20,000 nucleotides of DNA from an uncultured virus (IMG/VR IMGVR_UViG_3300017963_000250) (taxonomy: Duplodnaviria > Heunggongvirae > Uroviricota > Caudoviricetes). The DNA is taken from IMG/VR virus record IMGVR_UViG_3300017963_000250; one strand, given 5' to 3'. This document shows positions 2,089 through 18,705 of the stretch, piece by piece. The notes beneath the pieces were generated by a model. The model saw only the letters and a list, made by a program, of their open reading frames with translations. It was not told the DNA's origin and ran no database searches. Made by a program: the position numbers and the translations under genes. Position 1 is the stretch's first letter; each line of letters starts with the position of its first letter.

Positions 2089-2516
2089 ACTACATGTTTG
2101 TAAACCTCTACCTTGAACGGCATCGTCCCCGCCTCGTTCGCTATCTCCGAAAACTTCAATGAAGTCGACTCGGACGCGACGCCCGGCACGAAATTGACAT
2201 GCACTACTATCCTGCTGACCATGTTCGCTAAGTCGAGGAGATCCATCCTCATCCGATCGAGCGAATACGGCAGGTAATACGCAACCCCGTTCTCCGACTG
2301 CTTCACGCGGAAAAATTCGTCGCCTTTGTGTAAAATATTGATATACCCCGTATCGCGGCGACGAAAATACCTGTTCCACGCCCACGCGGCCACGCCGGCA
2401 ATGCCGATAATTTTCCAGCTTATCCCGAACGGGTTACCGCGCAACCTTCGCATCTTTGGAGGTTTCCCTGTCCTCGGACAAATCATTTGTGCCCCTCCGG
2501 TATCTCTGGTTTCCAT
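2079..2516 (-). CDS. Membrane-anchored protein, paralog of the C-terminal part of 2516..3604
   Basis: RRLRGNPFGISWKIIGIAGVAAWAWNRYFRR aligns with RRNPFGVSWTKIALGAGIAGVGWWAWNRFLRK; RIVVHVNF with KIVVRVFF; PFKVEVYKH with PYPIEIQKH. TGATG coupling at 2516. Confidence 0.8.
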   Translation of the reverse strand: METRDTGGAQMICPRTGKPPKMRRLRGNPFGISWKIIGIAGVAAWAWNRYFRRRDTGYINILHKGDEFFRVKQSENGVAYYLPYSLDRMRMDLLDLANMVSRIVVHVNFVPGVASESTSLKFSEIANEAGTMPFKVEVYKHVVEV

Positions 2517-3604
2517 CAGTCGAAGTGTTTCTGTATCTCTATGGGGTATGGGAAATTCTTTACGAATTCCATAAGCAACCCGAACGTGGTGTCGGCGACA
2601 GTGCTCGCGATCTGGCGCGAGAAGAACACCCGCACCACGATCTTGTCGTACTTCTTGCCGAGAGAGTTCAGGTCGTTCTCGAACTGCTTCATCTCGTAGG
2701 CGACCATCTTGTTCTGCGCCTTGTCGAAAATGAAGGCGTTCACCCCGTCGTGAAACACGGTCATCACGGCGGCGGCGATGCCGGCACCGAAGTGTTTCTG
2801 TATCTCTATGGGGTATGGGAAAGTCTTTACGAATTCCATAAGCAACCCGAACGTGGTATCAGCGACGGTACTCGCGATCTGGCGCGAGAAAAACACCCGT
2901 ACCACGATCTTGTCGTACTTCTTGCCGAGGTAGTTCAAGTCGCCCTCGAATTGTTTCATCTCGTAGACAACCCTCTTATTCTGCGCCTTGTCGAAAATGA
3001 AGGCGTTCACCCCGTCGTGAAACACGGTCATCACGTAAAGCGGTTGTTTGCGCAGAAACCGGTTCCACGCCCACCACCCGACACCGGCAATGCCGGCACC
3101 GAGCGCGATCTTGGTCCAGCTAACGCCGAACGGGTTACGGCGGATCAACCTGTCCGCCTGCTTTTTGGGGTATCTTCTCCGTATCGCTTTTTTCATGTCA
3201 TCGTCCATCTTCCAGAACATCTGCCGGCGGTGCGATCTCAGCCAGGACTTCGCCTTCGACTTCGTCCACCGCTGGTACGGTTTCAACTGTATCGTCCGGC
3301 CCTGGTGCGTGATCGACCTACCGGTGGGGAACACCAGGCCCTGCACCCTGGTCGCGCGTCCGCCCTCGTACTTTGTCGACGGTTTTGCGCCGTACGGCGA
3401 CCCGAATCGGAGCAGGATCGGGCCGTGCTCCTTGTGCTTCAACCCTACATACTTGCTCCGGAACCACCGTTTGCCGGCGCGTTCCTGGAATATTTCCTTG
3501 TCCTTCAGTGTATAGTGTACCGAACGCGGCTTCTCGGCCCACCGGCCCTCATCGGCGAGCATATCCAACATCGCCGCCATACCGATCACCGGTTGCGGAG
3601 GCAT
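2516..3604 (-). CDS. Basic N-terminal domain + RRNP + TM helix + tandemly duplicated ~82-aa domain
   Basis: Coupled at both ends. K/R-rich N-terminal half, one TM segment, and MTVFHDG...IQKHF present twice. Confidence 0.85.
   Translation of the reverse strand: MPPQPVIGMAAMLDMLADEGRWAEKPRSVHYTLKDKEIFQERAGKRWFRSKYVGLKHKEHGPILLRFGSPYGAKPSTKYEGGRATRVQGLVFPTGRSITHQGRTIQLKPYQRWTKSKAKSWLRSHRRQMFWKMDDDMKKAIRRRYPKKQADRLIRRNPFGVSWTKIALGAGIAGVGWWAWNRFLRKQPLYVMTVFHDGVNAFIFDKAQNKRVVYEMKQFEGDLNYLGKKYDKIVVRVFFSRQIASTVADTTFGLLMEFVKTFPYPIEIQKHFGAGIAAAVMTVFHDGVNAFIFDKAQNKMVAYEMKQFENDLNSLGKKYDKIVVRVFFSRQIASTVADTTFGLLMEFVKNFPYPIEIQKHFD
2521..3035. repeat. Intragenic tandem duplication, ~248-bp copies (2521-2768 and 2788-3035; period 267 bp)
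   Basis: Alignment by eye gives about 18 mismatches, mostly synonymous, with 5 amino-acid changes. Confidence 0.95.
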
Positions 3605-3970: not shown

Positions 3971-4669
3971 TTACTGCTCCTGTGTTGGGACCGGGTACGC
4001 TATGCCGCGGATATAGATCCTGAGTCCATGGTTGTACACCGAACTCTGGTTCGAGACCAGGAAGTACACCGTCTCCTGCTCCCTCGCCATGCCGGCGTTA
4101 CCGGACTCGTATACCCAATAGTTGTCGGGGAAACCTATGCCGCTGGTGCTACTGATGGTCGATGGCGGTACCCCGACGATCCCGGTCGTCCGCGTCTCGG
4201 TAACCAGCACCGGATCGTCGAACGGCGGCACCGTCGCGACCGAGTCCACCTTCCCGCTCTGGAACACCGAGTCGTCGCCGAGGAACAGCCTGACAATGAT
4301 ATCCTGCGCGCCCTGGCAGGTAAAGTATTCCCACGAATAATCGGTAAGCTCGAAAATCGTGTTCCTGGGGACGACGACTATCGGGATGTACAGGTTGGAA
4401 CTCGGCGGGATCTTTCGTACCTGCGGCGACAGGTTCACTTCGCGCACCTGCTTGTCGCCTCTGCCGTATGGGATCTCTATGTTCTGGATATAGTTCGGAA
4501 GAAGCGCATACGGGTTGTCAGGCCGGAGCGTCGACAAATCCTCGAACGTCGACGCCAACCGCGCACCGACCCCTCGTGGTTCGGTATAGTACGGGACCCG
4601 CGACCGATCGGGCACCTTCCGGCAACGAAACAAACTCTCAATGCTAAATTCGTCCAGGAAACCACCCAT
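3971..4669 (-). CDS. Beta-rich putative minor capsid/penton-like protein
   Basis: 1-bp gaps to both neighbours. Beta-rich C-terminal two thirds ending TVYFLVSN...LRIYIRGIAY, like the terminal strands of the adjacent proteins. Confidence 0.55.
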   Translation of the reverse strand: MGGFLDEFSIESLFRCRKVPDRSRVPYYTEPRGVGARLASTFEDLSTLRPDNPYALLPNYIQNIEIPYGRGDKQVREVNLSPQVRKIPPSSNLYIPIVVVPRNTIFELTDYSWEYFTCQGAQDIIVRLFLGDDSVFQSGKVDSVATVPPFDDPVLVTETRTTGIVGVPPSTISSTSGIGFPDNYWVYESGNAGMAREQETVYFLVSNQSSVYNHGLRIYIRGIAYPVPTQEQ

Positions 4670-4670
4670 C

Positions 4671-5549
4671 TCAAGTTCTCCGGTAATATATATTGAACCC
4701 GGCCAAAGCGAAATACACGGTGTTGGACGACCCGGTGAGGTTTTGAAAACGTAGCTTGAATTGCGTCTTGCGTTGAAATATCTGCGGTTCGAAGTCGCGA
4801 TAGTATTCCGCGTTGCCGCCGATCATGCCGCTGTGTATCCACCCATTCATGAGTTCAAAACCGGTACCGACATTCGACACCCTGACCTTGTACGCGCCGG
4901 TACTGTACGTGAGCATCCGACGCAGGTAAAAATCGGCGTCACTTATGAAGGTGATATATGCCACGACCTCGGTCCCGACACCGGCACCGATCGTTATCCC
5001 GGAATCGGTCGTGTAGAAAAACGGACGTGCCATCCGGCTCGCCGGCGACAGTTCGTCAATGAGACTCCTGGCGTCGAAATAGTATCGCTGGCCTTCGAAC
5101 GCGAGCCTGACGTCATTCGGCGCGCCGGACAGATCCGCCAGGTCGACGACAAGTGACTGGGTCTCGTGTAAAAGCATCGGGATCGGAAGCTCGAACGGCC
5201 GTTGCCCGTTCCCGACAATGAGGCGGCTGTGGATCGGCCTGTTCGACATGTAGCGTTGATACTCGTTGTCGAAAATGAACAGGGTATAATCCTGCGAGGT
5301 CGCGATCCCCTTCAGGCGTCTCAGGTCTATCGCGCCGGCCTTGTCGTTACTCATGTTCCTCCTGGCGGTCCCGGCGGCAGGCACGGACACGACACTGTCG
5401 CCGGCCTGCTCGTCCCAGGTCAAGTCGTACGGGGTCGACGCGATCAAGACACTGTTCGGCTGTAGGCCACGAGTCTCGCTCTCTATGAGGGGCGCGAAAT
5501 TTGACAGTGACTCAAGATATATCGGCGTTATTTTGTTCTCTACCACCAT
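4671..5549 (-). CDS. Internally duplicated beta protein, putative double jelly-roll capsid protein
   Basis: The two halves align: LRRLKG/LRRMLT; YMSNRPIHSRLIVGNG/ELMNGWIHSGMIGGNA; LVVDLADLSGAPNDVRLAFEGQRYY/FKLRFQNLTGSSNTVYFALAGFNIY. GAGG RBS. The fold is inferred. Confidence 0.6.
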   Translation of the reverse strand: MVVENKITPIYLESLSNFAPLIESETRGLQPNSVLIASTPYDLTWDEQAGDSVVSVPAAGTARRNMSNDKAGAIDLRRLKGIATSQDYTLFIFDNEYQRYMSNRPIHSRLIVGNGQRPFELPIPMLLHETQSLVVDLADLSGAPNDVRLAFEGQRYYFDARSLIDELSPASRMARPFFYTTDSGITIGAGVGTEVVAYITFISDADFYLRRMLTYSTGAYKVRVSNVGTGFELMNGWIHSGMIGGNAEYYRDFEPQIFQRKTQFKLRFQNLTGSSNTVYFALAGFNIYYRRT

Positions 5550-6043: not shown

Positions 6044-6622
6044 TTAGGCGGGACGTCCCAGAATTCCGTGCAGGTAGCACCACAGGTCGATCGTCGCGGT
6101 GAAGGCGACGGTGTTTACCGTGGTCAGCGTGGCCTGGAAGTCTTGCTGGCTGGGGATATGGAGAGGCTCGCCTTCCAGATCCAGCGGCAGATACACCAGG
6201 GGGGACCCGATCCCGTTCTGGAGTTCCAGGATGGTGGTCGCGGTGACGGTGGTCGCGGCGACTCCAGTCAATCCGGCAGCGGCGGGGATCATGTGGTACA
6301 TGGTCCTGAGGTACGGTTTCGAGGAAAGCTTGAACTCGAAATACGCTTCGTTCATCAAGCGTTCCAGGTCCGCGACCGCGGTGCCCTGCTGCACGAAGAT
6401 ACTCACTCCGAACGCATCGAAAGTGTGCGGCGCGGCGAGCGATCCATCCGAGGTCATGTTCGTGTCGCGGAGGGTTCCGCCGAGAAAGGTCTTGAAGAAC
6501 GTCACCGACTGGGCCGTGCCGGCGGCGAGTTGTTTGCGATCGTAGATGGGCTCGCGGAGATATTCGAGTACCGCTCTTCCGGTATCGTACTTGGCTGCAC
6601 GTCTGTTTCCTGGCATTGCCAT
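6044..6622 (-). CDS. Putative major capsid protein, single jelly-roll type
   Basis: Strong AAAGGAG RBS, hairpins on both sides and mostly C/G-ending codons. Beta-rich with EPIYD...VTFF...TNM..DGSL..PHTF...LHIPSQQDFQATL...LWCYLHG. The function is inferred. Confidence 0.6.
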   Translation of the reverse strand: MAMPGNRRAAKYDTGRAVLEYLREPIYDRKQLAAGTAQSVTFFKTFLGGTLRDTNMTSDGSLAAPHTFDAFGVSIFVQQGTAVADLERLMNEAYFEFKLSSKPYLRTMYHMIPAAAGLTGVAATTVTATTILELQNGIGSPLVYLPLDLEGEPLHIPSQQDFQATLTTVNTVAFTATIDLWCYLHGILGRPA

Positions 6623-6739: not shown

Positions 6740-8329
6740 CTATCTACGTCCGTAATACCCGCGCGGCATCCACGGCGCGTATTTGTACCTTCTGGCGTTA
6801 CGGAGAAGTTCCTCGTCGAACTGCTGCATGTACCCGCCGTAGTAGGAACCGAGCGATGCGCCCCGACGCGGCAGCGTCAGGTAATCGCCCATACCCTGGT
6901 TTTTCTTGTCCGGGAGGGTGAGGTAGTCGCCCATGCTGTTCTTGTCCGGCAGGGTGAGGTAGTCGCCCATGCTGTTCCGACGCGGCAGGGTCAGGTAGTC
7001 GCCCATGTTGTTGTTCTGGCGCGGCAGGGTCAGGTAGTCGCCCATGTTGTTCCGGCGCGGCAGGGTCAGGTAATCGTCCATCCCGACCGGAGCGACGTAG
7101 GGGGTGCCCCACTTCTTGCGGATGCACCCGATCGCCTGTACCGTCTTCAGGACGCCGACGATCCCGGCACCGACCTGGAGCGCGAAGGTGTGCCTCGGAG
7201 CCAGCCCCGGCGAGAAGTAGTCGAGGGCCTTCCCGACACCATAGGAAAGGGCGGCGACGCTGCCCCAGGTGGTGGCGACCGGCACCATCTCGTCTACGAC
7301 ATGGAGCACGTTCGCTCTCTGGGTCACGTTCTTGCGGAGCATGTCGTTTACCCAGTAAGCGAGTTTGCCGCTCTGCTTCTTCACCCACTCGTGGCCGCTC
7401 ACGAAATGCACGGCGGCACCGGCGATCGCGCCCTCGCCACCGTAGACCGCCCATTCCTGCCAGGTGAGAGGCGGGTTGACATGAACAAGGCCAAGTCCAC
7501 TGCTTCTTATGGTCGACTTCAGTTTTCCGTAATCGCCACCGGCACCGGCAATGATACCTTCCGCGACCTCAGACGGCACCTTTTCCCGCAACCGTCTGGC
7601 GAGAAACGCGAATTTCTTCTCGCTTGTTTGGAGTTCGTTGATTGAGCGAACCTGCCTCGGAGTCAACAACTGCATGGTACCCGGTTCCGCTTCTCTGATG
7701 CGGGTGGGCCTGCGCCTTCCGGCGACCGCGCCGCGTTCTTTGCGCCGCGTCACTGCCGCCTTGCCCTTCTTCGTCTTCGGTTTCGGTTTCCCGTTCTTCG
7801 GTTTGGCTTTGCGCTTCCGTTTCGGGCGGTATCCGCGCGCGGCGGCGTAAAGGGCTTTTCTTTCGGCAACACTGAGCTTCGACCAGTCGGCGTACGGCCA
7901 CATGAAGGGTGACCCCTTGTAGTCCTTGCCGTCATATTTCCACGACCCGTCCCAGCCCATCTGCTTGGCGAAGGTCTTGGACACGGTGACGCCCTTGTGC
8001 CCCTTGAGGTACCGCTGGTACTTCTTCGAAGCTTTCGGGTAACCCTTGATCGACTTCTTGGTTCGCTTCCGCTTCGCGACGGCCTCGACAGCCGGTGGCG
8101 AGGGGATGTTCTTCATGATCTTGCGCGCGTCACGATACCGACCGGCCCGCGTGAGTCCGGGGTTCTCCATCGCGGAGATCCGTTGGGCGGTCTGCCACTG
8201 GGTGAGGCCGGGATACTTCCGCCCGGTCTTGCCAAACCGGTACGTTGCCCGGTCTCGCTTGTAGGTGCGTTTACCTTTCTTCTTACGACGACGCTTCCTT
8301 CTCGGCGGGTTCAACATAAGAACTGGCAT
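6740..8329 (-). CDS. Large basic core/membrane protein with NP motifs and C-terminal MGDYLTLP repeats
   Basis: The start is probably ATG 8329 (MPVLMLNPPRRK; AAGGAG RBS) rather than 8377. K/R-rich N-terminal half, hydrophobic helices after VNPP, then a repeat tail. Confidence 0.85.
   Translation of the reverse strand: MPVLMLNPPRRKRRRKKKGKRTYKRDRATYRFGKTGRKYPGLTQWQTAQRISAMENPGLTRAGRYRDARKIMKNIPSPPAVEAVAKRKRTKKSIKGYPKASKKYQRYLKGHKGVTVSKTFAKQMGWDGSWKYDGKDYKGSPFMWPYADWSKLSVAERKALYAAARGYRPKRKRKAKPKNGKPKPKTKKGKAAVTRRKERGAVAGRRRPTRIREAEPGTMQLLTPRQVRSINELQTSEKKFAFLARRLREKVPSEVAEGIIAGAGGDYGKLKSTIRSSGLGLVHVNPPLTWQEWAVYGGEGAIAGAAVHFVSGHEWVKKQSGKLAYWVNDMLRKNVTQRANVLHVVDEMVPVATTWGSVAALSYGVGKALDYFSPGLAPRHTFALQVGAGIVGVLKTVQAIGCIRKKWGTPYVAPVGMDDYLTLPRRNNMGDYLTLPRQNNNMGDYLTLPRRNSMGDYLTLPDKNSMGDYLTLPDKKNQGMGDYLTLPRRGASLGSYYGGYMQQFDEELLRNARRYKYAPWMPRGYYGRR
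6864..7081 (-). repeat. Six in-frame copies of M(G/D)DYLTLP with short R/K/N linkers
   Basis: GGCAGGGTCAGGTAGTCGCCCAT-like unit repeated six times on the + strand at 36-42 bp periods, with synonymous variation. Confidence 0.95.
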
Positions 8330-8361
8330 ACGTTTCTCCTTTGCTTTACTGTTCTTCCGTT

Positions 8362-8796
8362 TTATTTGTGTAACCAACCATCTTTTTTCATGATCGTTTC
8401 GCCCAGCATGTAGACGTTGCCCTCTGTGTCGCTCACCAGAAAGGTTTGGGGTGCCTTGTGGACATACTTGTATGGTTGCTTACGAGAGTTTCTCCTTGGG
8501 GTGTAATAGATATTCTCCATGACCCCGATGTGCGAGACTATCTTTACCTTCCGCTCATCGATACCCGGCGGGGTTTTTTGCAAAGTGATTTTGTCCGGCA
8601 AAGCGTGGTGTTGTCGCCAGAAATCTTTCACCGAGGCGTTGAATTCCTTGCGCGTCAGACTAATACCCGCCTTCCTCGCCAGACGCTGCGCGTCCAGCCA
8701 CAGGTTCTCGACCTCGTCCGACTTGAGGTCGAGCGGCGGGTTCACCCGGAGCAAAAGTGGGTTCTGTTTCCGCTTCGCCTTCTTCCGCTTCGCCAT
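8362..8796 (-). CDS. Basic protein with two NP motifs followed by a globular domain
   Basis: Abuts the upstream stop. MAKRKKAKRKQNPLLLRVNPP leader. Confidence 0.8.
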   Translation of the reverse strand: MAKRKKAKRKQNPLLLRVNPPLDLKSDEVENLWLDAQRLARKAGISLTRKEFNASVKDFWRQHHALPDKITLQKTPPGIDERKVKIVSHIGVMENIYYTPRRNSRKQPYKYVHKAPQTFLVSDTEGNVYMLGETIMKKDGWLHK

Positions 8797-9381
8797 TTAT
8801 CTGCCCCATCCCCATTTGCGCCACATCCACCTGCCGCCAAAAAACGCGGTAGCGCCAAGAGCGACGGTGCCGACAACCGTGCCGATCCCGATACCGGGTT
8901 TGGCTGGTGCTACACCTGGTACCTTGGACACGGTCGGCGCGACGGGTGCTTCCGGAGCAGCCGGCGCTTTGACTTTGGCGATGTCGTACATTGCCTGCGC
9001 GTTGGTTTCGAGCGATTCGAGCATCCGGTAGGCGTCGGTAAAGTAGACGTACGCGCCGGTATCTCTCGCGGCTTTCACCTGCTTCGCAAACTCGCTGAAC
9101 GAATTTATGAGCGCGTCGAGATAGATAACGAGATCGGGATCGCTCGCCCACGTCGCTCTAACTTCGCCGTCAATTTGATTCAAGACCGGTTGAAGGCTGC
9201 TCAATATCGCGGTGATATCTTCTTCGAGCAAATTTCCGAGTTCGGACGCTTCTTCGAACGTCATAGCCCCCCCGCCGCCGACAGCAGCAAGTTCGGCTAT
9301 CATCTGGTCTACTTTCGCGTCCAGGCTTGCTCGGATGTTGCTAATGAGCGCCAAAAAATCGGTCAAAGTATTTTGCAACAT
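8797..9381 (-). CDS. Acidic helical protein with Pro-rich linker and C-terminal TM anchor
   Basis: GGAG RBS. Ends GIGIGTVVGTVALGATAFFGGRWMWRKW. Confidence 0.8.
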   Translation of the reverse strand: MLQNTLTDFLALISNIRASLDAKVDQMIAELAAVGGGGAMTFEEASELGNLLEEDITAILSSLQPVLNQIDGEVRATWASDPDLVIYLDALINSFSEFAKQVKAARDTGAYVYFTDAYRMLESLETNAQAMYDIAKVKAPAAPEAPVAPTVSKVPGVAPAKPGIGIGTVVGTVALGATAFFGGRWMWRKWGWGR

Positions 9382-9888: not shown

Positions 9889-10578
9889 CTATTTCCTGAC
9901 GGCGAGTCCGACAAGTATCACCGCTCCCGCGGCAAGCGCCCACGGGCCGTATTTCTCCACCGCGCTCTTTTCGGGCGCAACGGCAGGGGCGGTAGGAGTC
10001 GGATACGGCACGATGCCCTTTTGCTGCGCCACCGCCAGTCTCTGCGCTTCAATCATACGACGCGCGGCCTCGATCTGCTGCTGGGTCATGAGTTGCTGCT
10101 GTGTCACGGCCGTCGACGCCAACTGCGAGGTCTGGGCCGCGAGGTCGGCGGCAGACCCGGCGACAGTCGCGCCGGGCACGGTGGTGCCAGACTGAAGCGA
10201 CTGCAATACCGCAGCGGTACCGAACCCGGCGTTCTTCAAGAAATCGCCGGCACCACCGAGAAGCGCGCCCCAATCCTCACCGGTCCAGGTCGGCTCCTGG
10301 GGAGACTCCGCGATCTCGCTTTCCGTGAAGCGCGGGTACTGCGAGAACATCTCCGGCGACTCCTGCAACCATTCAACGCCGGTACCGGTCGGCGCGGTCT
10401 CGAACGCCCACTCAGCGCCGGTCCCATTCGTGGGCGGACCGACAGACTCTGGAAGGGGAAACGACTCGGGATCAAGATCTTGACCGAGGTCCCCGAGAAA
10501 GCTTCGACGCATACTCGGGCTCTTTGCCCTCGACTTCATCGTCGAGCGAAAACTTCTTCCTAGAAAAGCCATATACAC
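9889..10578 (-). CDS. Protein with basic leader, Gln/Ala helix and C-terminal TM anchor
   Basis: GAGGAG RBS. The leader ends at FLGDLGQ; the protein ends PWALAAGAVILVGLAVRK. Confidence 0.8.
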   Translation of the reverse strand: MYMAFLGRSFRSTMKSRAKSPSMRRSFLGDLGQDLDPESFPLPESVGPPTNGTGAEWAFETAPTGTGVEWLQESPEMFSQYPRFTESEIAESPQEPTWTGEDWGALLGGAGDFLKNAGFGTAAVLQSLQSGTTVPGATVAGSAADLAAQTSQLASTAVTQQQLMTQQQIEAARRMIEAQRLAVAQQKGIVPYPTPTAPAVAPEKSAVEKYGPWALAAGAVILVGLAVRK

Positions 10579-10587
10579 TCTCCTCTT

Positions 10588-10860
10588 CTATATCCGGCCC
10601 GCCGCTCTGAGCACGCTCCTGACGCCAATTCTCTTGAGATCGGCCTTGCCGAGACGCATCATGTTCTGAAGCGCAGCGGGCGACGGCGACGGGAAACCAC
10701 CGGTCCTCTCCAGCCTGCTCGCCGGCGCTAAACGCTGGTGTTCAGGCATAGACCACATTTTCGTGCCATACACGTTGCGCCCGCGAAAAAAACGCTTGCG
10801 CAGCGATGGACTGTTCATGGTGGACCTCATACTGGATGAAAAACCGTTACCCAAATACAT
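10588..10860 (-). CDS. Small basic protein sharing an N-terminal leader with 9889..10578
   Basis: AAGGAG RBS; Arg-rich. YLG..F...RSTM.SPSLRKRF compares with FLG.SFRSTM....SPSMRRSF. Confidence 0.7.
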   Translation of the reverse strand: MYLGNGFSSSMRSTMNSPSLRKRFFRGRNVYGTKMWSMPEHQRLAPASRLERTGGFPSPSPAALQNMMRLGKADLKRIGVRSVLRAAGRI

Positions 10861-11086: not shown

Positions 11087-12025
11087 TTACCCGTTCAAAG
11101 TGACTCGTCTCGCGACCGGTGCCGGTTTTGACGCGGCAACGGCGACCGGTGCCGCGACGTATTTCTCGTACAAGCGATCTCCCATCAACCCGCGAACAGA
11201 AAGCGCCGGTCCGCTGTATGTCGGCTGGTTGGTGTACCGCACGGAATCGGCGGTAATCGTCGACTCTTCGAGTAATGGCTCGGCGATAAAGTCCTGTGGC
11301 CGGCGCATGATCTCCAGTTTCCTGATATCCCTTATCTGTTCCTCGGCGGCAAGCAATTGCATCTTGGTCTCTGCCGCTGCCTCCGACCATTTCTGGCGTA
11401 TGATCGCGACCTCTCCGTCGTACCGTCTCTTTTCGGCCTCTTTCGCTTCGTTCAGTTGTTTCAATATGATCGCCAACTGCTCGTCGCGGTACTTCGTCCA
11501 GCGTTGTTTCGATTCGCGTTCCTCTATCTCGTCGCGTGCGGCCGGCACGATCACCGTGAAGATAAGCCCGATCTCGCTCGTGAGTTGCGGGTCACCGAGC
11601 ACATTTATCGAATTGAATATTATCTGGTACCACTCGCCGGTATCGCCGTGCGGGAACAGTTCCTTCTTGAGATACGCCTTGTTGTTCCATACGACCGCGA
11701 GCCTGGCCTTCTCATCTTTGAGCAGGTTCGGGTAATCGCGCCATAATTTGAACAGTTCCTCGGTCGTCTCCTTCTTGACCTTGGCCTCCCATGACTGGTC
11801 GTATATCGCCTCGGCCCAGTATTGCGCCAGATGGAGCAGGATCGGGAATTCTTTGATAAAAAAGTCATATTTTATCCTGAGTTTTTGCGTGATCGCGCCC
11901 TGCTGGCGGATATTGGCAACGAACGCGTTCCGTGCCTTCCACTCGTCATCCACCGTGTCGCCGATGATCTGTGGTCTGTCACTGAACACCGACATGAGTT
12001 TGTCTATCGCTTCCGACCTGCTCAT
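11087..12025 (-). CDS. Helical/coiled-coil hypothetical protein
   Basis: ATGA overlap with the upstream gene and AGGGGA RBS. Charged heptads in the C-terminal half. Confidence 0.8.
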   Translation of the reverse strand: MSRSEAIDKLMSVFSDRPQIIGDTVDDEWKARNAFVANIRQQGAITQKLRIKYDFFIKEFPILLHLAQYWAEAIYDQSWEAKVKKETTEELFKLWRDYPNLLKDEKARLAVVWNNKAYLKKELFPHGDTGEWYQIIFNSINVLGDPQLTSEIGLIFTVIVPAARDEIEERESKQRWTKYRDEQLAIILKQLNEAKEAEKRRYDGEVAIIRQKWSEAAAETKMQLLAAEEQIRDIRKLEIMRRPQDFIAEPLLEESTITADSVRYTNQPTYSGPALSVRGLMGDRLYEKYVAAPVAVAASKPAPVARRVTLNG

Positions 12026-12726
12026 TTGCGTCCCCTAAGTAAAACGAGTCCACCGACCACCACCGCTGCCGCCGCCGGTAGCAACCAGGGCTTCTCCTCA
12101 AGCGGCGGGGTGATCGCACCGGGTTCGAGTCGTTGTATCGCGAGATCTGTCGCTTCCTGTGCCCCAGTTACAACAGCCTCTTCTATCTGTCGCGTTCGCT
12201 CCTCTACCCCGGTAGCGATCGTTTCCGCAGCCGCACGCTGCTCTACCGCAGCAGCAGCTACCGCTTGTTCCTGCTCGATTATCTCGCGCGCCGACGACTC
12301 GACCTCACCGGCCCATTGCAACCGTTCGAGCTCCTGACGCGCTCGCTCTTCTGCGATTTGCGCCTGGAGCTCCTGCTCGCGTTTGACCATCTCCAGTTGC
12401 TCACGCAAGGCATCGGCCTGCATCTGCGCGATCTCCAGTTCGATCACTTGCCGTTCGGCGATCCCGGACGCCTGGATGTCGACGATCCTGCTCTGCGCAG
12501 CGACCAACTCCTCTTCGAGTTCGAACCGTTTCCGGGCGAGTTCCGCTTCGAGCTCCTGCTGCTCTTCCGCGAGTTCGAGCGTTTTTACCGTGCCGTAGAT
12601 CTGGACGCCGGCACTCGCACCGGTACCGACTATGCCGACGATCCCGGCAACGATATCGAGGAACCCCAACTGGTTTTGCGCGTTCCTTACCCCGTATCTG
12701 GATGATGGATAATTGTTGTAATACAT
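12022..12726 (-). CDS. Coiled-coil protein with N-proximal Gly-rich hydrophobic segment and C-terminal TM anchor
   Basis: NQLG-FLDIVAGIVGIVGTGASAGVQIYG, a long E/Q/A heptad region, and the ending PWLLPAAAAVVVGGLVLLRGRK. Confidence 0.85.
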   Translation of the reverse strand: MYYNNYPSSRYGVRNAQNQLGFLDIVAGIVGIVGTGASAGVQIYGTVKTLELAEEQQELEAELARKRFELEEELVAAQSRIVDIQASGIAERQVIELEIAQMQADALREQLEMVKREQELQAQIAEERARQELERLQWAGEVESSAREIIEQEQAVAAAAVEQRAAAETIATGVEERTRQIEEAVVTGAQEATDLAIQRLEPGAITPPLEEKPWLLPAAAAVVVGGLVLLRGRK

Positions 12727-12729
12727 AAT

Positions 12730-13005
12730 CTAGCTCTTTAAGTGGAAAACAGGGGTGCGACGCTTGCCGCGTATCCAGTACCCGGCGATGAATCCGACCC
12801 CCCAGGCGAGGAGCAGAGGCCCCGATTTTTTCGCGACGCTCGTTACCTGCTCGGTCGTTATCTCGCCGATATTGCCGCGTATGTTGAGATCGTAGTAGTA
12901 CGGTGCCAACGCGCCCTCGCGTTCGTGCCCGTACTGCCCCATGCCGTTCCGCTGACACAGGTACCCGATCCTGTTCCGGTTATCATAGTAATTCATATCA
13001 CTCAC
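12730..13005 (-). CDS. Small protein with C-terminal TM anchor
   Basis: AAGGTG RBS. RIG, GMG and NIG motifs; LLLAWGVGFIAGYWIRGKRR. Confidence 0.75.
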   Translation of the reverse strand: MSDMNYYDNRNRIGYLCQRNGMGQYGHEREGALAPYYYDLNIRGNIGEITTEQVTSVAKKSGPLLLAWGVGFIAGYWIRGKRRTPVFHLKS

Positions 13006-13006
13006 C

Positions 13007-14458
13007 TTAAGTGTAAAGGACGAACTTTTTCTGGTCGACTAACCCCTGCCATGGCGACGACTGCCGGTGCGTGTCGACCGGGATCGGCACTTCGATATTC
13101 TCGCGCGTTTCCTGGAACGCTATCGAATGGTCGGCGCGCGCACGTCGTTGCTCGATCTCTCGTTTATATTCGAGTTGCTGTCTGAATTCCTCCGGAGAAA
13201 GGCCGGCCTTTTCGACGTATTCATACATGGCCTTGCGCGCGAAATCGACCGCCCACCGTTCGGTCGCGGCCTTGATCTCGCCCTTGTACCTAGATATCTC
13301 CGCTTCGAACCCCTCCTTCTGCGCGACCTTCTCGCGTTCGAGATCTTCCTTCAGTTTCTTCTGGTAGAGCGCAAGTTCAAACTCTGCCTCTTTCTGCTTG
13401 GTGAGCAGCATCTCCATTACCTCGATATCGGCCTGGAGCTTGTTGATCGCCTCACGCTGCGCGCGTTTCTCCAGCGCCACCCGCGCCTTTTGTGCCTTGA
13501 GTTGCTTCAGTATCTTCTTGCGTTTCTTCAGTTGATCGTGTACCTCTACCGCGCTCGTGGCCGCGTTCGCGACCGATACGGCGGACGAGACGAGAAGCGC
13601 CGCCGTGCTACCGCCGGTGATGACGGTCAGTATCCCCGACCCGATGACCGACCCGAGTTTCGCCAGGAACTTCCACTCTTCGGACGTCATCTTGAACGGG
13701 GAGTCTTCCTCGAACTGGGACACCCAACCGATCGGCGTCAGGAGCACCACCCCTTTCACGAGTACGTTGAGGAAATGGCCCAGGAACCCGTGCTTTTCTT
13801 TCCACCGGTTGAGTTCCTTCGCTATCCTGCGTTCGACCCGGTCTATCTCGGCCTTTATCCGTCTTATCGCGCGTTTGATCTCTTTTTTTATCCGCTTCCA
13901 TGTCTTCGAAAACCATCCGGAAAGTTCCTGGTATCCGCCATCAATATCCCATACGGCGAGACGGTGATAATCGGGCGGGAACCAACCGGGGAAAGAGCCC
14001 GGAGTAGCGGGATCATAGGATACCCAGCCGTTTTGGGTCTGGGCTTGCAGGAGGATGTGGGAATAGTTTGGGTTGCCTTTCTCGGCGGCCACGGTGACGA
14101 ATCTGACAGGAATTCCAAGTCCGAGCAACATCGCGGCCAGACTGGTACACATGTCGTCGCAATCGCCGTACCCCGTTTTCACGGTGATAGCAGCGGACTG
14201 CACCAGTTCCGCCGTGTAGGGGTCGCGCACGAATTTTATATTGTTTTTCACCCACCAGAAAAGCGTGTTCGCCATGTGGAGGTTGTCGCGCGGCGCTGAC
14301 TCATGTGTGAGCTTGCGCGCGATCGAGATGACGTCCCAATCGGTCGACCCCTTCTTCGACTCCTCGACGATCGCCTCTATGGTGACCTTCGTGCCGGGCA
14401 CCCCGTATGGGATCTCCTGAAGCGACACCTTGTTCGGTTTTACCATCTCATGTGGCAT
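13007..14458 (-). CDS. Transglutaminase-like (papain-fold) cysteine enzyme fused to amphipathic, hydrophobic and coiled-coil regions
   Basis: Transglutaminase-like core: WVKNNIKFVRDP, GDCDD (Cys), GIPVRFV, YSHILL (His), WVSYDPA (Asp). GAGGA RBS. Confidence 0.85.
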   Translation of the reverse strand: MPHEMVKPNKVSLQEIPYGVPGTKVTIEAIVEESKKGSTDWDVISIARKLTHESAPRDNLHMANTLFWWVKNNIKFVRDPYTAELVQSAAITVKTGYGDCDDMCTSLAAMLLGLGIPVRFVTVAAEKGNPNYSHILLQAQTQNGWVSYDPATPGSFPGWFPPDYHRLAVWDIDGGYQELSGWFSKTWKRIKKEIKRAIRRIKAEIDRVERRIAKELNRWKEKHGFLGHFLNVLVKGVVLLTPIGWVSQFEEDSPFKMTSEEWKFLAKLGSVIGSGILTVITGGSTAALLVSSAVSVANAATSAVEVHDQLKKRKKILKQLKAQKARVALEKRAQREAINKLQADIEVMEMLLTKQKEAEFELALYQKKLKEDLEREKVAQKEGFEAEISRYKGEIKAATERWAVDFARKAMYEYVEKAGLSPEEFRQQLEYKREIEQRRARADHSIAFQETRENIEVPIPVDTHRQSSPWQGLVDQKKFVLYT

Positions 14459-15392
14459 GTCTTGTCCTCTGATATATACGTCTTATAAAATTGTCAAAGC
14501 TATTTACCGTGTCATCGACATGCACCACTGTCCCGCCGTCCATTTTCATCCTATTTGGAATGTACATGTCAAGCATGTCTGAATCAAACCAGCCCGCCTT
14601 CTTCGCCATCTCTTTTATCCTTCGACCAAGAAGTCGTGAACTGCTGACCTCAGAATACTGATATCCTAACCAGCGAAGATATTTTATAGACATCCTGTTG
14701 TACAATTGGGTATACGTGACCCCTTTTTTTCTTAGCCGGGCTCTAAACTTTTTTACCATACCAAAATGTCCAATTTCTTCTCCAACGCCCATAAATTCAT
14801 CTAGTTCCATTAGGGTCATAAACGGTCCGCCCATCTCGTCGGTAAGAAGGTCGTCAATATCTTCTATCGCCGGCTCGTACAGGGTACGTTTAGAAACTGG
14901 AGGAGACATAACTAATGCATACCTGTCCAAAGAAGTAATGTAAACAATAAATAACGGAGCATAGTTCAAAAACTTTGTGTCCCCTGGTGTCTTTGCGCCA
15001 GATACGCTAAAGGTTGTGTCGTCTGGATGAGAATGTATCGCAAAAATATTCTCCAACCCGCCAATTTCCATTACAACCTGACCAGGTATCTTCGAGGTAA
15101 GATAGTTCTTTCCATCTGCGATCAGGGTGTTTTGTCCCTCATATACAAGATACAAACCTATCTCATGTCCCTGTTTTGCTTTGTTTTTTGCAACTCTCTC
15201 AAAAACATCCATATTGCGAAAGACAAACCTGGCATAATAAAAAACAGCAAACCAAACCTTCTCCTTTTTCTTGTATCCTCCTCGATACTTCATGGGCTTC
15301 AGTGTCCCGTGCGTTCCGCTCTTCGTCAAAACTATCCGCTTTTTGTTTTTGTGTTCTAATATATCGCCTGGTTTGTATCCCTTCTCTGCCAT
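14448..15392 (-). CDS. JAB/MPN-like metallopeptidase domain protein (atypical spacing)
   Basis: HEIG (Glu) and IHSHPDDTTFS...GD resemble the JAMM E...HxH...S..D motif, but the Asp is further from the Ser than usual. Visibly AT-rich gene. Confidence 0.55.
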   Translation of the reverse strand: MAEKGYKPGDILEHKNKKRIVLTKSGTHGTLKPMKYRGGYKKKEKVWFAVFYYARFVFRNMDVFERVAKNKAKQGHEIGLYLVYEGQNTLIADGKNYLTSKIPGQVVMEIGGLENIFAIHSHPDDTTFSVSGAKTPGDTKFLNYAPLFIVYITSLDRYALVMSPPVSKRTLYEPAIEDIDDLLTDEMGGPFMTLMELDEFMGVGEEIGHFGMVKKFRARLRKKGVTYTQLYNRMSIKYLRWLGYQYSEVSSSRLLGRRIKEMAKKAGWFDSDMLDMYIPNRMKMDGGTVVHVDDTVNSFDNFIRRIYQRTRHAT

Positions 15393-15403
15393 TTTACTTC
15401 CTT

Positions 15404-15625
15404 CTACCTTTTCTTTTTCGTCGCCTTCTTCGCGGTTTTCTTCTTCGCGGCAGGTTTCCTTGCGGTCGTTTTCTTTTTCGCGGCGGGCTTTTTCTTCGCG
15501 GTTTTCTTTTTGGCGGTCGTTTTCTTTTTGGCTTTTTTCTTGGGTTTCGCGCTTTCGAGCATACCGCCCAAAATGCGCAAAGCTTTCTTCCTTGCCGGGG
15601 TCATTCTCACCATTTCTTCTGCCAT
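15404..15625 (-). CDS. Histone H1-like Lys/Ala-rich DNA-binding protein
   Basis: AAAGGTG RBS. KKTTAKKKTAKKKPAAKKKTTARKPAAKKK repeats. First gene of the leftward operon. Confidence 0.8.
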   Translation of the reverse strand: MAEEMVRMTPARKKALRILGGMLESAKPKKKAKKKTTAKKKTAKKKPAAKKKTTARKPAAKKKTAKKATKKKR

Positions 15626-15638
15626 AGTTTTACACCTT

Positions 15639-15791
15639 TATCACAAAAGTTTGACTGATATATCACGAAAGTTTGACTGATCTATCATATCGTATATATA
15701 GTAAATTACGTAATTGCAGGCGTGTCAATTAAAAAAGTATGACTGATCAGTCATATTTATCTTGACAAAAAGTCAAATATCAATATAGAAT
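15639..15791. promoter_or_regulatory. Divergent promoter/operator region
   Basis: Two 22-bp tandem repeats (15639-15682) and a perfect palindrome TATGACTGATCAGTCATA (15738-15755). Back-to-back TTGACA boxes on the minus (15723-15728) and plus (15762-15767) strands; the plus box has TAGAAT at 15786-15791. Confidence 0.7.
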
Positions 15792-15899
15792 AGGCAAAAT
15801 ATAGGGTCGGTTAATTTTTGGCCCTGTTATAAGTCACAACAACGTTTTGAAAGGTACGGCAGAAATGAAATAAAAAAAAATTTTTTCAGGAAAAAAAAC

Positions 15900-16499
15900 G
15901 TGAAAAGAAAAAGTAAAACCAAGGCAAAAAAACTCGCCAAGATAGAGGCGAGGAAAAAACGCCGGATAAACGTGTACGTGTGCCCGTTCTGCCTGGGGAT
16001 GAACAACTACATCCAGCCGTCGGTCGGCAACCACAAAAATTACTTCCGGTGCGATATCTGCCACGCTCGCGGGTTCGTCGAGGAGCAGATAGTAAAAGAA
16101 TACCTGATGATAGTCGAAGAGGTGATCGACAAGGAACTCCCGAACAAGCTTTACCGCGAAGACACCATCCCGCCCGAAAAGCAAGTGGATCTTATTGCGA
16201 AAGAGATCGCGATCAAAGAAGAAAAGGAGGATACAAAACGTGTGAGCCAATGGGACCGGACACTGTGGCTAAAAGAGTACCTGTGTCCGTTCTGTTTTAC
16301 CATGGAGACTTCCATCAAGATGAACAGGGGACTTGCGCACTACACCATCTTTTGCAAGCAATGCGCTTCGATATTTTTCCTTGACCGGATGGAGCGCGCG
16401 ATCCCGACGATGATGTTCATCGAACGCCTTCTTATCAAAAACTATTCGACCACTGACGCGGCCAGGCGCATTGCCAACAGTCGCACAAGGTCGATCTAA
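15900..16499 (+). CDS. Double Zn-ribbon protein, putative transcription regulator
   Basis: YVCPFC...CDIC and YLCPFC...CKQC; basic N-terminus. The GTG start is uncertain. Confidence 0.75.
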   Translation: MKRKSKTKAKKLAKIEARKKRRINVYVCPFCLGMNNYIQPSVGNHKNYFRCDICHARGFVEEQIVKEYLMIVEEVIDKELPNKLYREDTIPPEKQVDLIAKEIAIKEEKEDTKRVSQWDRTLWLKEYLCPFCFTMETSIKMNRGLAHYTIFCKQCASIFFLDRMERAIPTMMFIERLLIKNYSTTDAARRIANSRTRSI

Positions 16500-16905: not shown

Positions 16906-18705
16906 ATGGCAACACTGACACCACCGAAAAAGAGAGAGAGGGACACCTCGTCGAGAGATATCCCGAAAAGCGAACTGCAAAACGAAGTCGCAAAGGCGAT
17001 AAAATCGCTGCCGGGCGACGCGAGCGCGTTTTACTGGTTGATAAAGAAAAAATCGGCAACAGGCGGGCTGCAAGAGACCGCGAAACTGCCGGCGAACGAA
17101 CCGGTCGAAGACAAGATCGCCGACTCCGAATGGGGCGGGCCGGGCGAATACCGGCTCTATCTCTTCGATAACGACGACAAGCGGATCGAGGAAGTAAAGA
17201 CCATGCGCGTCAACATCCCGGACCCGATCACCCTCAATATAGAGGACGATGACGACGACGATGACCGGCCACTGCGCAAACGCGGACCGTACGTGTATCG
17301 TGACCACCCGGAAGCGCCGTCGAGGCCGGAGGACTACATGGAGGTGCTCCAGCAAAACCATCGCCGCATGATCGAAACCATGCAGATGATGCAGATGCAA
17401 AAAATCCAGACGAACATGCTGGTCTCGGACGACGACGCAAAACCTCCCCCTCCCCAGGAAAAAAAAGACGACCCGACCATGGAGGCGATGCGAACGATAC
17501 TTGAGAACATGCATCGGCAAACGACCGAGACGATGCAAAAGATCGAGTCCGCGAAGCAACGCGACGACATAGTCTCGCAGAACGCACAGCAACGCCAGGA
17601 GACCCGCGACCTGATCCTGGCACTCAGCAAACGGGACGACGGGTCGGGGAACCTCACACAGCTTATCAGCAGCATGAACCAGCAGACCCAGGCGATGATG
17701 CATCAGATGAGCGAACAGAACCGAACCATGGTACAAACGATGATGGAGTCGACCAGGAGCCAGGTCGAGATGATCGCGAAGCAGATAGAGATCATGACCA
17801 AACCGCGTGACACCGGGTGGCAAAAGGTGCTCGAAAACCCGCTATTTATAAAACTCGCAACCGACCTGGTCAAAAGACCAGAATCGTCCCCGCTCGAAAA
17901 AATGGTGCCAGAACTTATCGGAGGCGTCGCGACCACGATGATGTCGACGAGCACGGCGATGGTGCAAAAAGTGATGGAGTTCCAGCACGCACCGAGTGAG
18001 GACCCGTTAATGCAAAAGGTCGAGGCCGCGCAAAAAATCGCCGGCATGATCACGCCGGCCATAAACGAGATCGTGGAGAAGATCGCCATAAGGCAACAGG
18101 AGCCTGCGCCATCGGCCGCGATCGACCAACCGCAACCGGCGATCCACGCCGCGCCGCCGACGCCTACTCCGCATCGGTTGCCGCCACCGGCACATTACCG
18201 ACCGGAACCGACCAATTACCAGGCCGAACCGGCCACGCCGCCGCAACCGAGTCCGGCCACGCCACCGACGAGTACGATCTCGGCCCACAACCCGTACATG
18301 CTCTTCCCGTCCGAACCGGTAACGGCGACCCCGACCCTTGGCGAGCAACCGATGCAACCTCCTCCGGAACCGGAAAAATCGCCACCACCAACACCTGCGC
18401 CCGCACAGGATCAGGTCATGGAGCCTGCCACCGAGGAGGAACGCAAGATCAAGGCCGAAGTGCAGAAAGCGTTCGCGATAATGATAACCTGCATCAAAAA
18501 GGACAAGCCCGAGTTTGACAAAGCGTTTGAGCAGGTACAAGCACAGACCCCGTTTATCGACAACATGATCAAAAACGCGACCATGGACGAACTCGTGGAA
18601 TTGATTAGCAAGTTCGGTCTCGACACAAAGACGATCGAGAAGCTAAAAGAGTTTTTCTTATTCTACAAAGAGAAAGCCAGAGAAGGAGCGCCGGCAAATG
18701 GATGA
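16906..18705 (+). CDS. Large Met/Gln-rich coiled-coil and Pro-rich protein of unknown function
   Basis: AAGGGGG RBS. Globular N-terminus (WGGPGEYRLYLFD), acidic tract, M/Q helices, long Pro-rich linker and helical C-terminal domain. Confidence 0.85.
   Translation: MATLTPPKKRERDTSSRDIPKSELQNEVAKAIKSLPGDASAFYWLIKKKSATGGLQETAKLPANEPVEDKIADSEWGGPGEYRLYLFDNDDKRIEEVKTMRVNIPDPITLNIEDDDDDDDRPLRKRGPYVYRDHPEAPSRPEDYMEVLQQNHRRMIETMQMMQMQKIQTNMLVSDDDAKPPPPQEKKDDPTMEAMRTILENMHRQTTETMQKIESAKQRDDIVSQNAQQRQETRDLILALSKRDDGSGNLTQLISSMNQQTQAMMHQMSEQNRTMVQTMMESTRSQVEMIAKQIEIMTKPRDTGWQKVLENPLFIKLATDLVKRPESSPLEKMVPELIGGVATTMMSTSTAMVQKVMEFQHAPSEDPLMQKVEAAQKIAGMITPAINEIVEKIAIRQQEPAPSAAIDQPQPAIHAAPPTPTPHRLPPPAHYRPEPTNYQAEPATPPQPSPATPPTSTISAHNPYMLFPSEPVTATPTLGEQPMQPPPEPEKSPPPTPAPAQDQVMEPATEEERKIKAEVQKAFAIMITCIKKDKPEFDKAFEQVQAQTPFIDNMIKNATMDELVELISKFGLDTKTIEKLKEFFLFYKEKAREGAPANG

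Follow-up and report, generated by a model that had tools for sequence, protein, structure and literature searches.

Known prokaryotic viruses with double jelly-roll capsids have a lipid membrane inside the particle, and only for a few small model viruses has the passage of tailless membrane phages across the wall and membranes of their hosts been outlined. Lytic enzymes are described as regularly present in groups of double jelly-roll phages, among them lytic transglycosylases and GH25, NlpC/P60, lysozyme and M15 enzymes (PMC5894146), and a virion-associated muramidase is reported for PRD1 (PMC6356626). The phage enzymes PeiW and PeiP are described as cutting the wall peptide of methanogens by means of a Cys-His-Asp triad homologous to that of transglutaminases (PMC2989375, PMC4592898). 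The subject of the present analysis is a gene at 13007-14458 in a 20,000-nucleotide stretch of DNA from an uncultured virus (IMG/VR record IMGVR_UViG_3300017963_000250; the whole stretch is referred to below as the window). This gene encodes a Cys enzyme with a transglutaminase fold and a membrane anchor, and it lies in an operon for building the particle of a tailless virus of bacteria. The reading that we favour, with somewhat less than even confidence, is that its product is a cysteine hydrolase tethered to the virion membrane and acting on the cell wall at entry.

An earlier, sequence-only reading of the window had placed the open reading frame (ORF) exactly at 13007-14458; the gene lies on the minus strand. 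It encodes 483 residues and begins with ATG, with GAGGA 8 nt upstream; the last 11 nt of the preceding gene, 14448-15392, overlap its start. The plus-strand frame of the same interval is interrupted by stops, and a plus-strand ORF of 410 residues at 13067-14299 is rejected as a shadow of the real gene because all homology matches the minus-strand product. Word-indexed searches returned only the query, but the orphan status that this might suggest is ruled out by the thousands of relatives found in an exhaustive HMMER search: 3355 proteins at E<=1e-3, 856 at E<=1e-10 and 29 at E<=1e-30. Since so many database proteins match the product and 25 of the relatives are full-length, the minus-strand gene is real and not a chance ORF. 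No match for the 483-residue protein was found in PHROGs. The structure was modelled with AlphaFold2 (AF2) from an input of 134 sequences, giving a mean predicted local distance difference test score (pLDDT) of 78.6, and structural neighbours were taken from VIA. The fold, the triad, the architecture with its conservation, and the viral capsid context are established here. The parts of the gene are as follows.

13007..14458, minus strand: whole gene, comprising the transglutaminase-fold domain, putative tether helix, hydrophobic hairpin and helical tail (ORF, GAGGA, 25 relatives)
13925..14428, minus strand: catalytic domain, residues 11-178 (Pfam PF01841, AF2, VIA)
14159-14161, minus strand: Cys100 of the catalytic triad
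14057-14059, minus strand: His134 of the catalytic triad
14012-14014, minus strand: Asp149 of the catalytic triad
13910..13927, minus strand: junction ELSG/WF, residues 178-183, the domain boundary and proposed cleavage site (family conservation)
13793..13915, minus strand: cationic amphipathic helix, residues 182-222, with repeats of about 11 residues (hydrophobic moment, periodicity, AF2)
13721..13786, minus strand: hydrophobic segment 1, residues 225-246, with Lys235 near-invariant, in at least 90% of 26 sequences (hydropathy)
13670..13720, minus strand: acidic loop, residues 247-263, with the motif (N)PFK-x-T-x-EEW (Pro254; family alignment)
13547..13669, minus strand: hydrophobic Gly/Ala/Ser-rich segment 2, residues 264-304, with a TGGST break at 281-285 (hydropathy, alignment)
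13094..13546, minus strand: KKRKK basic patch and long helical region, residues 305-455 (AF2 helices, conservation)

The intact Cys-His-Asp domain claimed from the sequence alone is well supported. Pfam PF01841 (Transglut_core) matches residues 55-150 with E 9.8e-13 and 48.8 bits against a curated cutoff of 23, and the triad of C100 (within GDCDD), H134 and D149 is invariant in the 26 sequences of the full-length alignment (the query and its 25 relatives) and kept in at least 90% of the 134 sequences. The nucleophile is flanked by acidic residues, D99-C100-D101-D102, the first three of which are likewise invariant in 26/26. Residues 11-178 are modelled with pLDDT 93-99. The top VIA match of the domain is the putative protease 3kd4_A (Z 15.4 over 149 residues, root-mean-square deviation 2.9), followed by another putative protease, 3isr (Z 12.3), the animal transglutaminases factor XIII and transglutaminases 2 and 3 (Z 11-12), PNGase (Z about 11) and LapG (Z 10.8). 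Foldseek matches to Pei enzymes are weak (8z4f, E 1.6e-3; 8jx4, E 5.3e-3), and there is no match to them at the sequence level; in a viral fold library PeiP of phage psiM2 (Q77WJ4) ranks eighth (E 1.8e-3), the top place being taken by a 304-residue protein that is probably SSIP-1 gp34 (E 3.5e-11). As modelled, the domain is a plain transglutaminase core, a predicted catalytic scaffold, and its fold leaves wall-peptide hydrolysis, proteolysis and cross-linking undistinguished.

The full-length relatives are 414-560 residues long, with 25-40% identity in the alignment; all ten that were looked up are metagenomic, with one or two members each. Besides the residues already mentioned, R48, D79, E84 and G98 are invariant in all 26 sequences. 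The enzyme domain is followed throughout by a PGW-x-P motif, the junction and a basic repeat helix; then EF-x-RWE...G-x-FGKFL runs into hydrophobic segment 1 with its near-invariant Lys235, after which many relatives have an insert, hydrophobic and rich in Gly/Ala/Thr, that can reach about 60 residues. The plan continues with the (N)PFK-x-T-x-EEW loop, segment 2 and a basic patch, and ends with a conserved E-x-R-x-Q-R-E-A-I-x-K-L-E-x-D-I helix and a variable helical tail; within this conserved core, more loosely written as E-x-R-x-Q-R-E-A-I-x-K-L-x-x-D-I, E336 is invariant and K340 is kept in at least 90%. The fusion of enzyme, helix and membrane segments that had been proposed for checking among homologs is thus kept in 25 full-length relatives.

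The same holds for the junction, which had been read as ELSG followed by a cationic amphipathic helix. ELSG occupies residues 178-181 and is followed by WFSKTWKRIKKEIKRAIRRIK at residues 182-202 and by further helix onward. Within the family the junction is indeed kept: Gly181 is present in 23/26 sequences, the -3 position is hydrophobic in 24/26 (Leu in 18), 26/26 have a hydrophobic residue directly behind the Gly and Phe stands at +2 in 21/26, so that the consensus is L-[S/A]-G followed by [FWIV]-F, with one Gly only. The helix is longer than first noted, being predicted by AF2 at 182-222/223 (41 residues). It has a hydrophobic moment of 0.93 and a hydrophobic period of 3.68 residues, of a strength reached by 0/1000 shuffles, and residues 178-232 carry a net charge of +10. 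Arranged in rows of eleven, its residues repeat the pattern E-I/L-x-R-x-x-R-R-I-x-x. Across the 26 sequences the helix between junction and segment 1 measures 40-84 residues, with 32-47% apolar residues and a net charge of -6 to +15 (4/26 are net negative), and its best period is 3.66-3.68 in 15/26 and 3.66-3.74 in 21/26. A period of 11/3, or 3.67 residues, is that of apolipoprotein-type surface helices. The 11/3 period, the narrow apolar stripe with flanking Lys/Arg and the variable number of repeats fit a tether or spacer lying flat on a lipid surface, and they fit a pore-former of fixed design less well. The membrane-lytic peptide envisaged by the sequence-only reading is therefore not supported: with this period, a length of 40-84 residues and 4/26 members not cationic, the helix resembles a surface-lying tether.

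The remainder of the protein largely agrees with what had been seen in the letters. Both hydrophobic segments are present (225-246 and 264-304, the latter split by TGGST), AF2 confidence being low at 238-257 and 269-301. As to the long coiled coil, long helices are indeed predicted (287-322, 328-418 with pLDDT about 81-91, and 422-455, the tail being disordered), but the heptad statistics are weak: the a/d test over 305-455 gives a mean of 0.29 versus 0.243±0.033 in shuffled sequences, a value reached by 26/300 shuffles, a single heptad register holds only over about 305-353, and a 3.5 period is absent from the hydropathy Fourier test. An ESM Atlas search with the C-terminal module returned nothing convincing (best score 0.75, TM <=0.35), and its profile matches to the PDB were discarded as low-complexity helix noise.

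Distant relatives attach the same domain differently or not at all. SSIP-1 gp34, the only relative in a cultured phage, is a 304-residue protein of a Salisaeta phage annotated as 'structural protein', which consists of the domain and a single C-terminal hydrophobic segment and is 34% identical to our domain over residues 43-153 (tblastn E 3e-12). A C-terminal hydrophobic segment is also found in relatives L011, L015 and L021, an N-terminal one in L022, L023 and L026, and several segments in L027. Stand-alone domain proteins of about 180-200 residues occur in metagenome and IMG/VR contigs and end within ~10 residues of the junction position. These comparisons suggest that membrane tethering of transglutaminase-fold domains recurs among viral relatives and show the enzyme as the apparently constant part across them, the membrane attachment as the variable one. 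Consequently, the C-terminal module points to an anchor, and the enzyme to the conserved effector. Pfam scans of the 134 relatives matched Transglut_core in 130, DUF553 in 34, a CEP76 peptidase-like family in 9 and Apolipoprotein in 2.

Two further kinds of relative deserve mention. In a subfamily of provirus-like loci (L029-L041, from Nitrospiraceae, Alpha- and Gammaproteobacteria, Thermomicrobiales and Leptolyngbya) the proteins, of about 320-370 residues, combine the domain with a basic Trp/Arg-rich C-terminal extension without a membrane segment, and in most of these loci a capsid-family gene lies 3.5-4.3 kb downstream. A stand-alone relative, L008 2670-4295, has an intein-like insert of ~350 residues exactly at the catalytic Cys (GDC/DD split) that carries a LAGLIDADG-like motif and ends in ...HN; the position of this insert suggests a constrained active site.

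Hardly any Pfam or PHROG matches occur in the window. The enzyme gene is near the head of the particle operon, a minus-strand operon that runs from 15392 to the start of the window; among its products are many small proteins containing hydrophobic segments, and several are beta-rich. The capsid gene of this operon and the control region are as follows.

4671..5549, minus strand: double jelly-roll capsid protein, 292 residues (AF2, VIA)
15400..15900, no strand: divergent control region, AT-rich (GC 0.40), heading the minus-strand operon

The capsid gene lies 7.5 kb downstream of the enzyme gene in the same operon. Its product, which has 12 database relatives with the query included, is modelled as two beta sandwiches (pLDDT 87.3, predicted template modelling score 0.86; AF2 with 13 sequences) and matches double jelly-roll capsid proteins over its whole length. 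VIA gives Z 11.7 with the major capsid protein (MCP) of STIV (225 residues aligned), Z 10.4 with PRD1 P3 (236 residues), Z 9.2 with PM2 P2 (204 of 269 residues), Z 8.7 with PBCV-1, Z 8.2 with the FLiP MCP and Z 8.0 with phiCjT23; cellular double jelly-roll proteins score like viral ones (8ic8, Z 11.9). The pairing of the two genes is not confined to the window. Counting the window, 17 loci have a match to a hidden Markov model of the capsid family on the strand of the enzyme gene and downstream of it, at a distance of 3.5-4.3 kb in several of them; the pair is present in 10/14 of the best genome loci, and 3 of the other 4 are contigs of at most 5.4 kb. In a PHROG search over 145 ORFs of 8 related viral contigs, replication genes were recognised, but near the enzyme gene there was neither a terminase nor a portal, an HK97 capsid or a clear tail gene. 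An entry or particle context of the kind the sequence-only reading had inferred thus fits, given the capsid gene in the operon and the structural annotation of SSIP-1 gp34. The many small membrane proteins of the operon, together with the known prokaryotic members, suggest an internal particle membrane. A bacterial host is indicated by Shine-Dalgarno-like motifs before most genes and by the sigma-70-like sites of the AT-rich region (15673-15702 and 15762-15791, plus strand, with 11/12 matches), although such sites are not more numerous than in shuffled sequences.

The gene context of the full-length family comes from the window and one further locus; a search of the viral contigs for two other full-length relatives, P0029 and P0006, had no result. 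The latter, L028 (NZ_AP019860.1, 3848240-3869637), is a provirus-like element in the chromosome of the planctomycete Candidatus Uabimicrobium amorphum, is syntenic with the window and provides the best genome match: L028 9974-11440 encodes a full-length relative with 30% identity over residues 1-461 of P0014, the first sequence of the alignment (E 1e-45). Besides the enzyme, the element encodes membrane proteins, a putative ATPase and two proteins of jelly-roll type, and a HEAT-repeat cellular gene lies at one flank. The capsid gene pairs with L028 15850-16752 (33% identity, E 2e-41), window 6044-6622 with L028 15206-15823 (E 9e-27) and window 16906-18705 with L028 about 9000-9206; window 3971-4669, 599-1006 and 2-271 also have L028 partners. 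The last of these is a cut ORF that is 39% identical (E 6e-10) to L028 18002-18835, which has a Walker A motif and a weak KaiC-like match (26.9 bits versus a cutoff of 26.6) and is a candidate packaging ATPase near the capsid gene.

Several neighbouring genes have features of their own. The 545-residue protein of window 6740-8377 (minus strand) has a very basic N-terminal half and six tandem C-terminal repeats of the MGDYLTLP type; L028 14629-15171, in the same position, has three TGAYLT-type repeats, and such repeats were found in no other locus. Window 1277-2089, 2079-2516 and 2516-3604 (minus strand) encode neighbouring paralogous membrane proteins with a common NPFG-x-SW...W-x-WNR hydrophobic motif, the product of 2516-3604 containing an internal duplication of about 100 residues. 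The products of 10588-10860 and 9889-10578 (minus strand), otherwise unlike, have a similar leader of ~25 residues, MY..G..F.S.M.S...SPS.R..F, and the small proteins of 285-599 and 12730-13005 have NGMG 15-21 residues from their start. Two genes past the enzyme, window 12022-12726 (minus strand) encodes hydrophobic segments at both ends of a charged helical middle; it looks homologous by eye to L028 13240-13833, a match that BLAST did not return. The first gene of the divergent operon, window 15900-16499 (plus strand), encodes a double zinc-ribbon protein (Pfam Lar_restr_allev, E 9.5e-8), and a similar Cys-rich protein is encoded by L028 9386-9844 beside the enzyme gene.

How might such a protein work? 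According to the favoured reading, it would be a structural component of the internal membrane of a tailless bacterial virus with a double jelly-roll capsid, and its N-terminal transglutaminase-fold domain would be an active Cys-His-Asp hydrolase. The N-terminus is hydrophilic and lacks a signal peptide, the first hydrophobic stretch outside the domain core starting at residue 225, and for this reason the enzyme would be made on the cytoplasmic face of the membrane. Strongly basic sequence precedes segment 1, an acidic loop follows it, and KKRKK comes after segment 2. Basic flanks of membrane segments stay cytoplasmic by the positive-inside rule, so that the likeliest topology is N-in, hairpin, C-in, with both the enzyme and the helical tail cytoplasmic. 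In PRD1-type assembly the membrane face that was cytoplasmic ends up turned towards the capsid; the enzyme would thereby come to lie on that side of the particle membrane. The long 11/3 amphipathic helix would keep the enzyme domain on the membrane surface, the hydrophobic hairpin would anchor the protein, and the C-terminal helical region would probably touch other particle proteins. During infection, when the viral membrane is exposed or remodelled, the tethered enzyme might cut peptide or isopeptide links of the host wall and let the genome pass. Its role would resemble that of the muralytic enzymes of other membrane-containing phages, and its chemistry that of the PeiW/PeiP pseudomurein endoisopeptidases. 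Presence in the particle, topology, substrate and timing are the parts of this reading that we infer. Several points weigh against it. As structural neighbours, putative proteases, animal transglutaminases, PNGase and LapG rank above the Pei enzymes, and therefore the fold selects no substrate. A Pfam scan found neither a second catalytic domain nor a wall-binding domain among the 134 relatives, and the stand-alone relatives have no obvious route into the particle. An enzyme predicted to be cytoplasmic, beside particle proteins during assembly, would suit a maturation protease at least as well. Finally, the 20-kb window is only part of a contig of up to 93 kb, and another muralytic gene may lie elsewhere.

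The alternative that survives best, possible although on balance unlikely, is a maturation protease that trims particle proteins during assembly, as do the cysteine proteases of eukaryotic double jelly-roll viruses. Such an enzyme may also cut itself at the junction. It would then be set free, and the membrane-bound helix left behind, now starting with Trp or Phe, could act on host membranes at entry. This would account for the conservation of the junction in the full-length family and for the stand-alone relatives stopping at that very point, and it suits a cytoplasmic domain encoded near the head of the particle operon. The adenain site consensus is (M/I/L)XGG↓X or (M/I/L)XGX↓G (arrows mark the cut). 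With its single Gly, E-L-S-G↓W-F does not fit it, so the adenovirus-type site to which the sequence-only reading had likened the junction does not carry over; the lack of the second Gly of that consensus also counts against proteolysis at ELSG/W, and a conserved Gly followed by an aromatic residue could equally serve at a domain boundary as a helix cap and interface anchor. Among solved structures the nearest are putative proteases, and LapG is described as a true protease of the transglutaminase fold (PMC4359373). Anecdotally, the N-terminus of L028 14629-15171 reads ...DLSGIAW..GGMG... Candidate substrate sites, however, are not enriched. G[LFM]G occurs 6 times in 22 operon proteins versus 4.5±2.2 in shuffled sequences (reached by 150/500), GMG 3 times versus 0.94 (reached by 73/1000), and the junction-like [LM][SA]G-hydrophobic pattern 3 times versus 2.1 (reached by 346/1000); Gly motifs are not enriched in L028 either. 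A cleavage code based on Gly motifs is thus not supported in the window, although the counts are small and a few N-proximal NGMG sites exist. The pattern [LM]G.[YFW], with 11 occurrences versus 3.8 expected, was rejected as a cleavage code, its excess coming mostly from the six tandem repeats of one protein.

A further, improbable reading combines the favoured wall hydrolase with such self-cleavage in a single chain. In this version, a calcium-switched protease would cut itself at the L-[S/A]-G/Trp-Phe junction when the particle opens, freeing the wall-cutting enzyme and unmasking a membrane-bound arm (the 11/3 helix, Gly-rich fusion-peptide-like segments and helical stalk) that fuses with or breaches the host membrane; it may also trim particle proteins. 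A device of this kind would be the bacterial-virus counterpart of adenovirus protease (AVP) plus protein VI, or of primed fusion proteins.

We regard two further possibilities as improbable, and to the same degree. One, already named as the alternative in the sequence-only reading, is a true transglutaminase that would join particle proteins by isopeptide bonds and so strengthen a large capsid or its membrane layer. The triad is intact, the domain would face the capsid by the predicted topology, and factor XIII and transglutaminases 2/3 are as similar in fold (Z 11-12) as the hydrolases; but most tested microbial members of Transglut_core are hydrolases, the domain is minimal (about 170 residues), lacking the extra barrels of the animal enzymes, and no conserved Gln/Lys-rich substrate was seen. 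The other is an assembly factor whose 11/3 helix, hairpin and long helices would give the membrane vesicle under the capsid its curvature or size, with a secondary or binding role for the enzyme. The 3.67-residue period, as in apolipoprotein-like surface helices, the 2/134 relatives that reach Pfam Apolipoprotein and the long, variable helical tail speak for such a factor. Yet it is the enzyme domain and not the helical module that the wider viral family keeps, and the invariant triad argues for catalysis. Lastly, a lysis protein, either a membrane-anchored endolysin or a holin-like fusion releasing progeny, seems very improbable, for although there are hydrophobic segments with Gly-rich stretches and PeiW and PeiP are described as acting in lysis (PMC2989375), the protein has no N-terminal signal or signal-anchor and so its enzyme stays cytoplasmic, the gene sits in a structural operon beside capsid genes, and the SSIP-1 homolog is annotated as structural.

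The favoured wall hydrolase, if true, would be a virion lytic enzyme of a new type, one that brings its own membrane tether, and a maturation protease, if that is what the protein is, would be a functional counterpart, on a different fold, of the protease of eukaryotic double jelly-roll viruses. The pair of enzyme and capsid genes is found in viruses and proviruses assigned to Planctomycetota, Nitrospiraceae, Proteobacteria, cyanobacteria, Saccharibacteria and Methylomirabilia. Since the enzyme domain travels with the capsid gene across many phyla, it behaves as a hallmark gene of a large, almost unstudied virus group. Candidatus Uabimicrobium amorphum, with its related element, is available in culture. 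Virion enzymes of membrane phages and viral transglutaminase-fold enzymes are known kinds; the fused tether architecture is new, and so is the hallmark position beside a double jelly-roll capsid gene in many phyla. A literature search, which did not extend to the original description of SSIP-1, found no link between a transglutaminase-like gene and prokaryotic jelly-roll viruses.

Several known systems invite comparison. Cecropins are short secreted peptides with a conserved cationic helix, a hinge and a hydrophobic helix; in the 483-residue protein a cationic helix does precede a hydrophobic one, but it lies inside a large protein and varies across the family in length (40-84 residues), charge (-6 to +15) and apolar content (32-47%). 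The 11-residue repeats of apolipoproteins and alpha-synuclein are similar in their 3.67-residue period and in the basic residues flanking a narrow apolar stripe; this is a likeness of form and not homology, and the 483-residue protein itself has no Apolipoprotein Pfam match. Adenovirus is a double jelly-roll virus with a cysteine protease and a membrane-lytic amphipathic helix freed by cleavage next to a Gly; AVP, however, has another fold, and the enzyme and the lytic helix are separate proteins. Of the enzymes proposed to play the same role, NlpC/P60 enzymes are papain-like cysteine peptidases. PRD1 P15/P7 and the lytic enzymes of double jelly-roll phages belong to the same kind of virus (PMC6356626, PMC5894146), but the PRD1-type muralytic enzymes described have lysozyme-like folds or belong to another family, and none has this tether architecture; a Pfam scan of 23 window ORFs found none of the known virion muralytic domains (PRD1-type, NlpC/P60 and others). 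LapG, of the BTLCP family, is similar in being a compact bacterial protease of the transglutaminase fold, described with calcium ions near its active site, and differs in being secreted and periplasmic (PMC4359373), whereas the 483-residue protein lacks a signal peptide. Peptidase C93 (PF06035) gives it 17 bits versus a cutoff of 27, and 1/134 relatives reaches E<=1e-3 with that family. PeiW and PeiP (MEROPS C71) have their own N-terminal wall-binding repeats, no membrane anchor and archaeal hosts with pseudomurein, and they match in fold only at about E 1e-3; in the 483-residue protein, whose domain starts at about residue 11, Pfam finds no pseudomurein-binding repeats. Like it, they are virus-encoded and have a transglutaminase fold and a Cys-His-Asp triad, with which they cut a wall peptide link (PMC2989375). 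As for SSIP-1, no other gene of the window has a BLAST match in it, and gp34, at 304 residues, lacks the 11/3 helix, the hairpin and the long helical tail. It has, however, the same transglutaminase-like domain together with a membrane segment, and it belongs to a phage described as tailless and with an internal membrane (PMC6356626, PMC6260650).

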